Part shown: piece after piece, positions 16,151 through 18,177 of the stretch | How positions within the stretch are numbered: the first letter of the stretch is position 1 | How the letters are laid out: each line of letters opens with the position of its first letter | Assembly (NCBI RefSeq): GCF_003334405.1 | Contig: NZ_QOWM01000029.1 | Direction: 5' to 3' (one strand) | Origin: Escherichia coli | GTDB lineage: Bacteria > Pseudomonadota > Gammaproteobacteria > Enterobacterales > Enterobacteriaceae | Length of the DNA stretch: 27,599 nt | Notes under the pieces: model-generated | What the model was told of the DNA's origin: nothing | The model's database searches: none | The model's input: only the letters and a program-made list of their open reading frames with translations | Translations under genes and position numbers: made by a program

Positions 16151-16905
16151 CTGTGGACAGACAGATATGCACCTCCCACCGCAAGCGGCGGGCCCCGACC
16201 GGAGCTAATTTAGTTACAACATTCAAACATAAACCCCGGAAAAACCCCGGTTCCGCGCAGAACTGAAACCACAAAGCCCCTCCCTCATAACTGAAAAGCG
16301 AGGCCGCCCCGCCCAAAGGGCGGGAACAACATCGCTTTTAATTATGAATGTTGTAACTAAGCAACATCATCGCTGTCAGTCCTCTGGCGGGAAGTTCTCA
16401 GTACACGCTCGTAAGCGGCCCTAACGGCCCGCTAACGCGGAGATACGCCCCGACTTCGGGTAAACCCTTGTCGGGACCACTCCGACCGCGCACAGAAGCG
16501 CTATCATGGCTGAAAGCGGGTATAGCTTAGCAGGGCGGGGATGGGATAGGTGAAATCTATCAATCAGTACCGGCTTACGCCGGGCTTCGGCGGTTTTACT
16601 CCGGTATCATATGCAACAACGGAGTGCCGCCTTACATGCCGCTAACGCGGCATCAAAAACCCTTTCTTCCCCAGTGATCTCTGTACTCAATGTGTATTTT
16701 CATTTATTGATGAAATTTGATATTTACGCAATTTTCCCGTTCTAGTGTATTTTATTCTTTCGGAGGCTATAATATGTTTAATGTGATTACTCACCCGCCG
16801 CACTGGATGAGCTGCTGGAATTACCAGACAATCTGCTTCGTGAAAACGATGAAGCATGGCTACATCAGTATCATGCCTAAACCGAATGTGGGTAATGACT
16901 CCAAC

Positions 16906-17409
16906 TTATTGATAGTGTTTTATGTTCAGATAATGCCCGATGACTTTGTTATGCAGCTCCACCGATTTTGAGAACGACAGCGACTTCCGTCCCAGCCGTG
17001 CCAGGTGCTGCCTCAGATTCAGGTTATGCCGCTCAATTCGCTGCGTATATCGCTTGCTGATTACGTGCAGCTTTCCCTTCAGGCGGGATTCATACAGCGG
17101 CCAGCCATCCGTCATCCATATCACCACGTCAAAGGGTGACAGCAGGCTCATAAGACGCCCCAGCGTCGCCATAGTGCGTTCACCGAATACGTGCGCAACA
17201 ACCGTCTTCCGGAGACTGTCATACGCGTAAAACAGCCAGCGCTGGCGCGATTTAGCCCCGACATAGCCCCACTGTTCGTCCATTTCCGCGCAGACGATGA
17301 CGTCACTGCCCGGCTGTATGCGCGAGGTTACCGACTGCGGCCTGAGTTTTTTAAGTGACGTAAAATCGTGTTGAGGCCAACGCCCATAATGCGGGCAGTT
17401 GCCCGGCAT
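16906..17409 (-). CDS. insB: IS1 transposase InsB (C-terminal part of the InsAB' frameshift fusion)
   Basis: 167-aa ORF with the IS1 InsB sequence (…[72 protein letters not shown]). Confidence 0.9.
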
Positions 17410-17603
17410 CCAACGCCATTCATGGCCATATCAATGATTTTCTGGTGCGTACCGGGTTGAGAAGCGGTGTAAGTGAACTGCAGTTGCCATGTTTTACGGC
17501 AGTGAGAGCAGAGATAGCGCTGATGTCCGGCGGTGCTTTTGCCGTTACGCACCACCCCGTCAGTAGCTGAACAGGAGGGACAGCTGATAGAAACAGAAGC
17601 CAC
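17328..17603 (-). CDS. insA: IS1 InsA (transposition inhibitor / N-terminal part of InsAB')
   Basis: 91-aa product [43 protein letters not shown]… matches IS1 InsA as recalled. Confidence 0.9.
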
Positions 17604-17658
17604 TGGAGCACCTCAAAAACACCATCATACACTAAATCAGTAAGTTGGCAGCATCACC

Positions 17659-18177
17659 GAAGAAGCCTTACTGGGAATGGGACAGCGCACAGAATATGAG
17701 CCTGTCTTTGTCACCGAAAATCCGGAACAGGTTACCCTCCCTGAAAAAATCTGTCAGTCCCCACAAAGAGTTCGCGACATTATTATCAATCATCCGCTCT
17801 GGGATGAGTACAACAGCCGCTGTATTGGATGCGGACGCTGCACAACCGGGTGTCTGACCTGTACCTGCTACAGCGTTTTTGATGTGGCTTATGACGAAAA
17901 TCCTCAGCGCGGTGAACGCCGTCGCCAGTGGGCCAGCTGTATCGTACCGGGTTTCAGCGATATGGCCGGTGGACATAGTTTTCGCCAGTCTGCGGGAGAA
18001 CGTTTACGTTACCGTGCACTTCATAAAGTCAATGATTACAAAGCCCGCAATGGTACTGAACATATGTGCGTGGGCTGCGGACGCTGCGATGACCGTTGTC
18101 CTCAGTACATTAAATTCTCACGTATTATCAATAAAATGACTGCCGCAGTCCGGCAGGCACTTTCCGGGGAGGCATAA
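17659..18177 (+). pseudogene. asrA: Anaerobic sulfite reductase subunit A (AsrA) 3' fragment, truncated by IS1
   Basis: Frame is open from the IS1 boundary (17659); product contains two ferredoxin-like Cys clusters ([23 protein letters not shown]) typical of the AsrA C-terminus. The N-terminal half is absent because the gene begins at the IS1 end. Confidence 0.7.

Follow-up and report, generated by a model that had tools for sequence, protein, structure and literature searches.

IS-promoted adjacent deletions are classical for IS1, IS903, and IS150, and are well described for IS26 in resistance plasmids. The ability of IS1 to promote the loss of DNA next to it is reportedly one of the classical properties of the element (Reif and Saedler 1975; Turlan and Chandler 1995). 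In general, IS copies that lack a target-site duplication have been traced either to adjacent deletions or to recombination between two IS copies (PMC11708052). The IS1 element described here resembles the known adjacent deletions, with a single IS, an interrupted gene at the IS terminus, no duplication and a reduced backbone. Unlike them, it has a second, IS-independent joint 56 bp away. IS1A of Escherichia coli K-12 MG1655 (19796-20563) has the same 768 bp, terminal repeats, insA and insB genes and A6C site as the plasmid element, and its flanking 9-mers likewise do not match (GTAATTGCT vs TACCTCAAT). Duplication-less copies of IS1 thus exist even in the reference genome, and the plasmid case is not unusual.

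The related plasmids are IncF plasmids with an asrABC module (pRHBSTW-00777_2, pSE11-3, E. coli JNU p1, and others), which have the same replicon type at 94% identity. The asr modules are ~95-96% identical from asrA through asrB to the start of asrC and ~88-90% identical in the remainder of asrC, and fimbrial operons and integrase/par genes lie nearby in both cases. However, these plasmids have complete asrA and asrC genes and no IS1 at the site, whereas in the plasmid described here asrA is truncated and asrC is a pseudogene. They are mostly 60-145 kb in size and many are conjugative; the present plasmid has 27.5 kb and no tra genes.

IS1 and its missing target-site duplication

The window, that is, the whole stretch of DNA analysed (27,599 nucleotides), is the complete contig QOWM01000029.1 of GCA_003334405.1. 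Its first and last 77 bases are identical (1-77 and 27523-27599), a hallmark of circular paths in assemblies with k = 77, and this implies a closed circle of 27,522 bp. In an independent assembly, GCA_012802165.1, one contig has exactly this size (27,522 bp) and matches the window at 100% identity across the 21.5 kb compared. Within the complete circle, a search for both terminal repeats finds one copy of IS1. The features of the window are collected in Table 1.

Table 1. Positions of the annotated features in the window (strands as in the sequence presented).
Feature	Position	Strand	Basis or remark
K88/F4-like (fae) fimbrial operon	21630-27599 plus 1-1532	-	~88-91% identity to Escherichia plasmid fae operons
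IS110-family transposase gene, 340 aa	2967-3989	+	DEDD_Tnp_IS110 and Transposase_20 domains
AS-pc02 antisense RNA	12506-12646	-	Rfam
CopA antisense RNA	14774-14863	-	Rfam CopA, 89.9 bits
Leader peptide and copB	upstream of repA1
repA1, IncFII-type replication initiator	14936-15805	+	Pfam IncFII_repA on called gene
Conserved oriR/repA4-type region	15806-16650	+	downstream of repA1
relE/parE-family toxin gene stump, first 63 nt only	16774-16836	+	alignment to pRHBSTW-00777_2 toxin gene (1830-2141)
Internal 49-bp fragment of IS2-like (IS3 family) orfB	16835-16883	+	46/49 bases as in IS2 orfB, NZ_CP022914.1
GAATGTG, 7 bp directly left of IS1	16884-16890		3/7 bases match IS2 at the corresponding position
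IS1, intact, 768 bp	16891-17658	-	both terminal repeats placed exactly; only copy in plasmid
insB	16906-17409	-	InsB with 2 substitutions vs K-12
insA	17328-17603	-	InsA identical to K-12 protein
asrA 3' fragment (anaerobic sulfite reductase subunit A), codons 176-347	17659-18177	+	comparison with full-length asrA
asrB, 272 aa	18181-18999	+	intact open reading frame
asrC pseudogene	19010-19934	+	alignment to pRHBSTW-00777_2 asrC
IS256-family transposase gene, two reading frames (165 and 275 aa)	20367-21576		between asrC and 3' end of fimbrial operon

The element has the length of IS1 (~768 bp) and its imperfect terminal inverted repeats of ~23 bp (GGTAATGAC.../GGTGATGCT...), with both ends exact. 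The terminus GGTAATGACTCC... starts at 16891 on the plus strand and the terminus GGTGATGCTGCC... lies at 17658 on the minus strand, each occurring once in the window; the interval given in the initial annotation (16878-17670) is IS1 plus its flanks. Compared with the curated IS1A mobile element of E. coli K-12 MG1655, 766 of the 768 bases are identical (2 mismatches). The called IS1 gene contains the Pfam domains Zn_ribbon_InsA, HTH_Tnp_IS1, and DDE_Tnp_IS1, and the A6C motif between insA and insB is present as TTAAAAAACTC. At this site, a -1 frameshift yields the InsAB' transposase. Being of full length, with both genes and the frameshift motif intact, the element is predicted to be competent for transposition.

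A simple insertion of IS1 is recognised by a direct duplication, usually of 9 bp, on both sides of the element and by flanks that are contiguous in IS-free relatives. The element at 16891-17658 has no target-site duplication. It is directly preceded by ACCGAATGTG (10 bases, 16881-16890) and followed by GAAGAAGCC (9 bases, 17659-17667), and no choice of boundaries makes the two flanking 9-mers (CCGAATGTG vs GAAGAAGCC) match. The flanks had initially been written without a duplication of 8-9 bp, and this holds in the boundary-shift comparison, where lengths of 7-14 bp were tried with each IS1 boundary shifted by up to 3 bp; careful boundary assignment brings out no duplicated 8-9-mer. The best match between the flanks is 6/7, reached only by counting the terminal ACC of IS1 itself as flank, and the sole direct 5-mer common to the 30-bp flanks, GAATG, is found at non-equivalent positions. 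The flanks are not contiguous in pRHBSTW-00777_2 either, where the corresponding relE and asrA points are 26 kb apart. The 56 bp to the left of IS1 were also considered together with the element as one mobile unit, and by eye the 9-mer on the relE side is mismatched with GAAGAAGCC.

Replicon side and asr side of the joint

To the left of IS1, the repA and oriR sequences have 94.4% nucleotide identity to those of pRHBSTW-00777_2; we take the region downstream of repA1 to be oriR from the established IncFII organisation. Homology to E. coli JNU p1 extends from repA through position 16649 of the window, and the conserved replicon homology stops near 16650, whereas homology to pRHBSTW-00777_2 extends to 16836. 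In that plasmid, a relE/parE-family toxin gene with its helix-turn-helix partner comes after this replicon region; the window has only a stump of the toxin gene, with a 1-bp deletion near 16797 relative to pRHBSTW-00777_2, and the antitoxin gene is gone. The stump meets the IS2-like scrap with a 2-bp overlap (GC) that is not at any IS end and lies 56 bp left of IS1. The scrap maps ~150 bp before the end of IS2 orfB, and the same 93.9% match is found in many IS3-family transposase genes. The adjoining GAATGTG may be diverged IS2-like sequence (KPNV vs KPDG) or filler. Two pattern scans for the scrap, one including the 7 extra bases and one omitting them, gave zero exact matches in 100,044 species genomes, and the exact IS2-like variant did not turn up in any of the collections searched. 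The joint between the relE stump and the scrap, with its 2-bp microhomology, is a deletion of its own and independent of any IS. The claim that IS1 adjoins the RepFIIA origin region therefore does not hold, since its left neighbour consists of 7 bp, the scrap and the relE stump. With this joint to the left of IS1, one IS1 event cannot explain the whole interval between oriR and asr, which contains at least two separate joints.

To the right, homology to asrA begins at the first base after IS1, which corresponds to nt 526 of 1044 in six plasmids with complete asrABC. The cut falls on a codon boundary and codons 1-175 are lost. The initial annotation had asrA start at the IS boundary; this is correct insofar as the homology abuts the end of IS1 exactly, but the gene does not begin there, being truncated in its 5' part. 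In asrC, there is a nonsense codon (CAG>TAG at 19193-19195) and an internal deletion of 89 bp (19368/19369). The sequencing-run assembly ERR15823777 has the junction of IS1 with asrA and the 89-bp deletion but still CAG at the nonsense position, which makes the nonsense mutation younger than the IS1 joint. The asr operon decayed stepwise following the truncation of asrA. With asrA beheaded and asrC reduced to a pseudogene, the sulfite-reductase operon is dead. A copy of asrA ~96% identical to the plasmid gene is annotated on some E. coli chromosomes (water isolates, pig ETEC), and the asr module is thus not confined to plasmids in Escherichia.

The joint recurs in other isolates. In GCA_012530995.1, both IS1 junctions and the fae/asr region are present at 100% identity on a 33-kb contig (DABAWW010000042.1). 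The junction of IS1 with asrA is found in four more samples, GCA_024592615.1 and three sequencing-run assemblies including ERR15823777, and all contigs that encode an identical AsrB carry the truncated asrA. With identical junctions in a second assembly, a matching circle size in a third and the right junction in four, the structure is real, stable and inherited. The sister plasmid DABAWW010000042.1 differs from the window in its ParM/StbB pair, and its 33-kb contig also bears umuDC and dinI. Its differing backbone indicates that the backbone was exchanged or further deleted after the IS1 joint had formed.

The initial annotation proposed comparing the flanks with relatives that lack IS1. Such a comparison identifies both flanks, although no direct ancestor was found. 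Modules of asrABC occur in at least 18 Escherichia and Salmonella plasmids in PLSDB, and asrA is complete in all PLSDB asr plasmids. pRHBSTW-00777_2 contains both the replicon-relE segment and asr, and in E. coli JNU p1 asrC ends only a few bases from where the oriR-region homology stops. DNA fused to the replicon had been called unrelated to it; this has to be given up, because asr modules occur near this replicon type in related IncF plasmids and are not foreign to it. In both of these relatives, the orientation of asr relative to repA is opposite to that in the window. A simple deletion from such an arrangement fails, so that the ancestor must have been arranged differently or more rearrangements have taken place. 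The neighbours of asr, their order and their orientation differ in every relative examined, and with gene order varying in this way no direct ancestor could be named. Megablast of the junction region gave no record in PLSDB and 5,426 complete E. coli genomes in which IS1 abuts either asrA or the IS2-like scrap. In the same complete genomes, a query built from the 5' part of asrA, GAAGAAGCC and the IS1 end matched no place at >=80% coverage and retrieved intact asrA only. An ancestor with IS1 bounded on both sides by GAAGAAGCC or by CCGAATGTG was not found in PLSDB and the 5,426 complete E. coli genomes, nor was one with IS1 at one site among these and the contigs sharing an identical AsrB.

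Origin of the joint

Three features that go with an adjacent deletion are found here: an intact IS, no duplication, and a flank that starts at the IS terminus inside an unrelated gene. The reading we favour, to which we would give about an even chance, is an insertion of IS1 followed by an adjacent deletion through intramolecular replicative transposition. IS1 would first have inserted normally at one of its present boundaries, either at asrA nt 525/526 or in the IS2-like element. In a replicative transposition within the molecule, it would then have used a second site on that plasmid as its target. The DNA separating the two sites would have been lost, with one IS1 kept between two unrelated flanks and no duplication. 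Such a deletion would have beheaded asrA, and the decay of asrC would have come afterwards. A separate, IS-independent joint at the 2-bp microhomology would have fused the relE-type stub to the interior of the IS2-like element, and between that joint and IS1 there would now be only the 56 bp of scrap and extra bases. We infer that a deletion occurred and that the IS1 transposase, and not homologous recombination, was its agent; so too we infer which side was the original insertion site and in which order the two joints arose.

Several observations agree with this reading. On the right, the IS1 terminus falls exactly on a point inside asrA, which is what the joining of an IS end to a target should produce. 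The single IS1 in the circle means that no reciprocal product is left on the plasmid, in accordance with the prediction of a deletion. Both flanking modules come from one plasmid family, which speaks for an event within a single molecule. The adjacent deletion is also the most economical explanation, as one insertion and one intramolecular event are fewer than two insertions and a recombination. In this respect, the IS1-mediated deletion suggested in the initial annotation stands, but a single IS1 event cannot cover the whole interval: the joint of relE with the IS2-like scrap, 56 bp away, is unexplained by IS1 action.

Recombination of the RecA type between two direct copies of IS1, one in the IS2-like element and one in asrA, each with its own 9-bp duplication, would lose the interval and leave a hybrid IS1, bordered on the left by the flank of one copy and on the right by that of the other. 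This product is identical to that of an adjacent deletion, and sequence cannot separate the two. Recombination would give exactly what is observed, a closed circle with one IS1 between unrelated flanks. Copies of IS1 are extremely abundant in Escherichia plasmids, often near this replicon and the toxin-antitoxin region, and missing duplications are documented to result commonly from recombination between IS copies (PMC11708052). However, this route takes three events (two insertions and one recombination) instead of two, IS1 is at neither site in any relative in PLSDB and the 5,426 complete E. coli genomes, and the 2 differences from IS1A form no recognisable mosaic. Recombination between two copies is thus a tentative and rather doubtful alternative.

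Exchange between replicons is unlikely. It corresponds to the cointegrate option of the initial annotation: the plasmid would have fused with an IS1-bearing chromosome or plasmid, by replicative cointegration or homologous recombination, and separated via a different copy of IS1, so that the DNA to one side of IS1 was swapped. This is compatible with the absent duplication. Because asrABC is also present on some E. coli chromosomes, the asr side could conceivably come from a chromosome, and the short-read contigs of related isolates break inside IS1, which indicates that other copies of IS1 are present in those genomes. Against this, both flanks are typical of one plasmid family, plasmid-type fimbrial genes follow asr, no junction of the asrA 5' part with IS1 occurs in the 5,426 complete E. 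coli genomes or the PLSDB asr plasmids, and more steps are needed than for a deletion. Such an exchange predicts that the missing halves of the duplications lie beside other copies of IS1, with GAAGAAGCC at the GGTAATGAC terminus and CCGAATGTG at the GGTGATGCT terminus.

A single-step movement of IS1, coupled to a rearrangement and causing a large deletion without duplication, as proposed for IS5 and IS481, is very unlikely. The 56 bp of IS2-like scrap and 7 bases would then be filler captured in the same event, which is equally hard to credit. Movements of IS with large rearrangements, no duplication and no easy assignment to either route have been described, but the traceable IS-plus-deletion events were all multistep adjacent deletions (PMC11708052), and single-step movement is not reported for IS1.

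That the contig path through IS1 joins the flanks of different IS1 copies is scarcely credible: the contig is of short-read style with a 77-bp k-mer overlap, the 768 bp of IS1 exceed k and several related assemblies break inside IS1, but GCA_012530995.1 has both junctions on one contig at 100% identity, GCA_012802165.1 has the exact circle size with 21.5 kb identical, and four further samples have the right junction. An IS1 composite transposon (Tn9-like) is ruled out, there being no second IS1 in the 27,522-bp circle. Inversion by IS1 within the plasmid is also ruled out, as the closed circle contains a single IS1 and no reciprocal flanks.

In the annotation of the plasmid, this IS1 should be entered as the joint of a rearrangement, not as a simple insertion. 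A deletion scar of IS1 is an ordinary, already known kind of plasmid scar; the present copy is one more natural example in the well-known class of IS copies without target duplications and has little importance beyond annotation.

The reduced plasmid backbone

Compared with the 87.9-kb pRHBSTW-00777_2, the plasmid is without tra, umuDC and the leading region, and of the finO region only a remnant is left. This strongly reduced F-like backbone points to large deletions as the general history of the plasmid. The 27.5-kb fimbrial plasmid of IncFII type can thus be regarded as a reduced derivative of larger asr-carrying F-like plasmids. Several IS-free deletion joints are seen in the backbone at 5706-12561, relative to pRHBSTW-00777_2. 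Here, an integrase-parA-parM-stbB block abuts a fragment of the DUF1281 region, with umuDC skipped, and is followed by short remnants of the leading region and the finO region.

The remaining genes include two further transposase genes. The IS110-family gene sits between the fimbrial regulator and the integrase/par region. The IS256-family gene is apparently a frameshifted pseudogene; its position is occupied by a peptidase and an autotransporter in related asr plasmids. The fae operon comprises genes for a PapB-type regulator, a K88 pA-like protein, an usher, a chaperone, a DUF5462 protein and three K88-type subunits, and the faeD-like usher gene runs across the contig ends.
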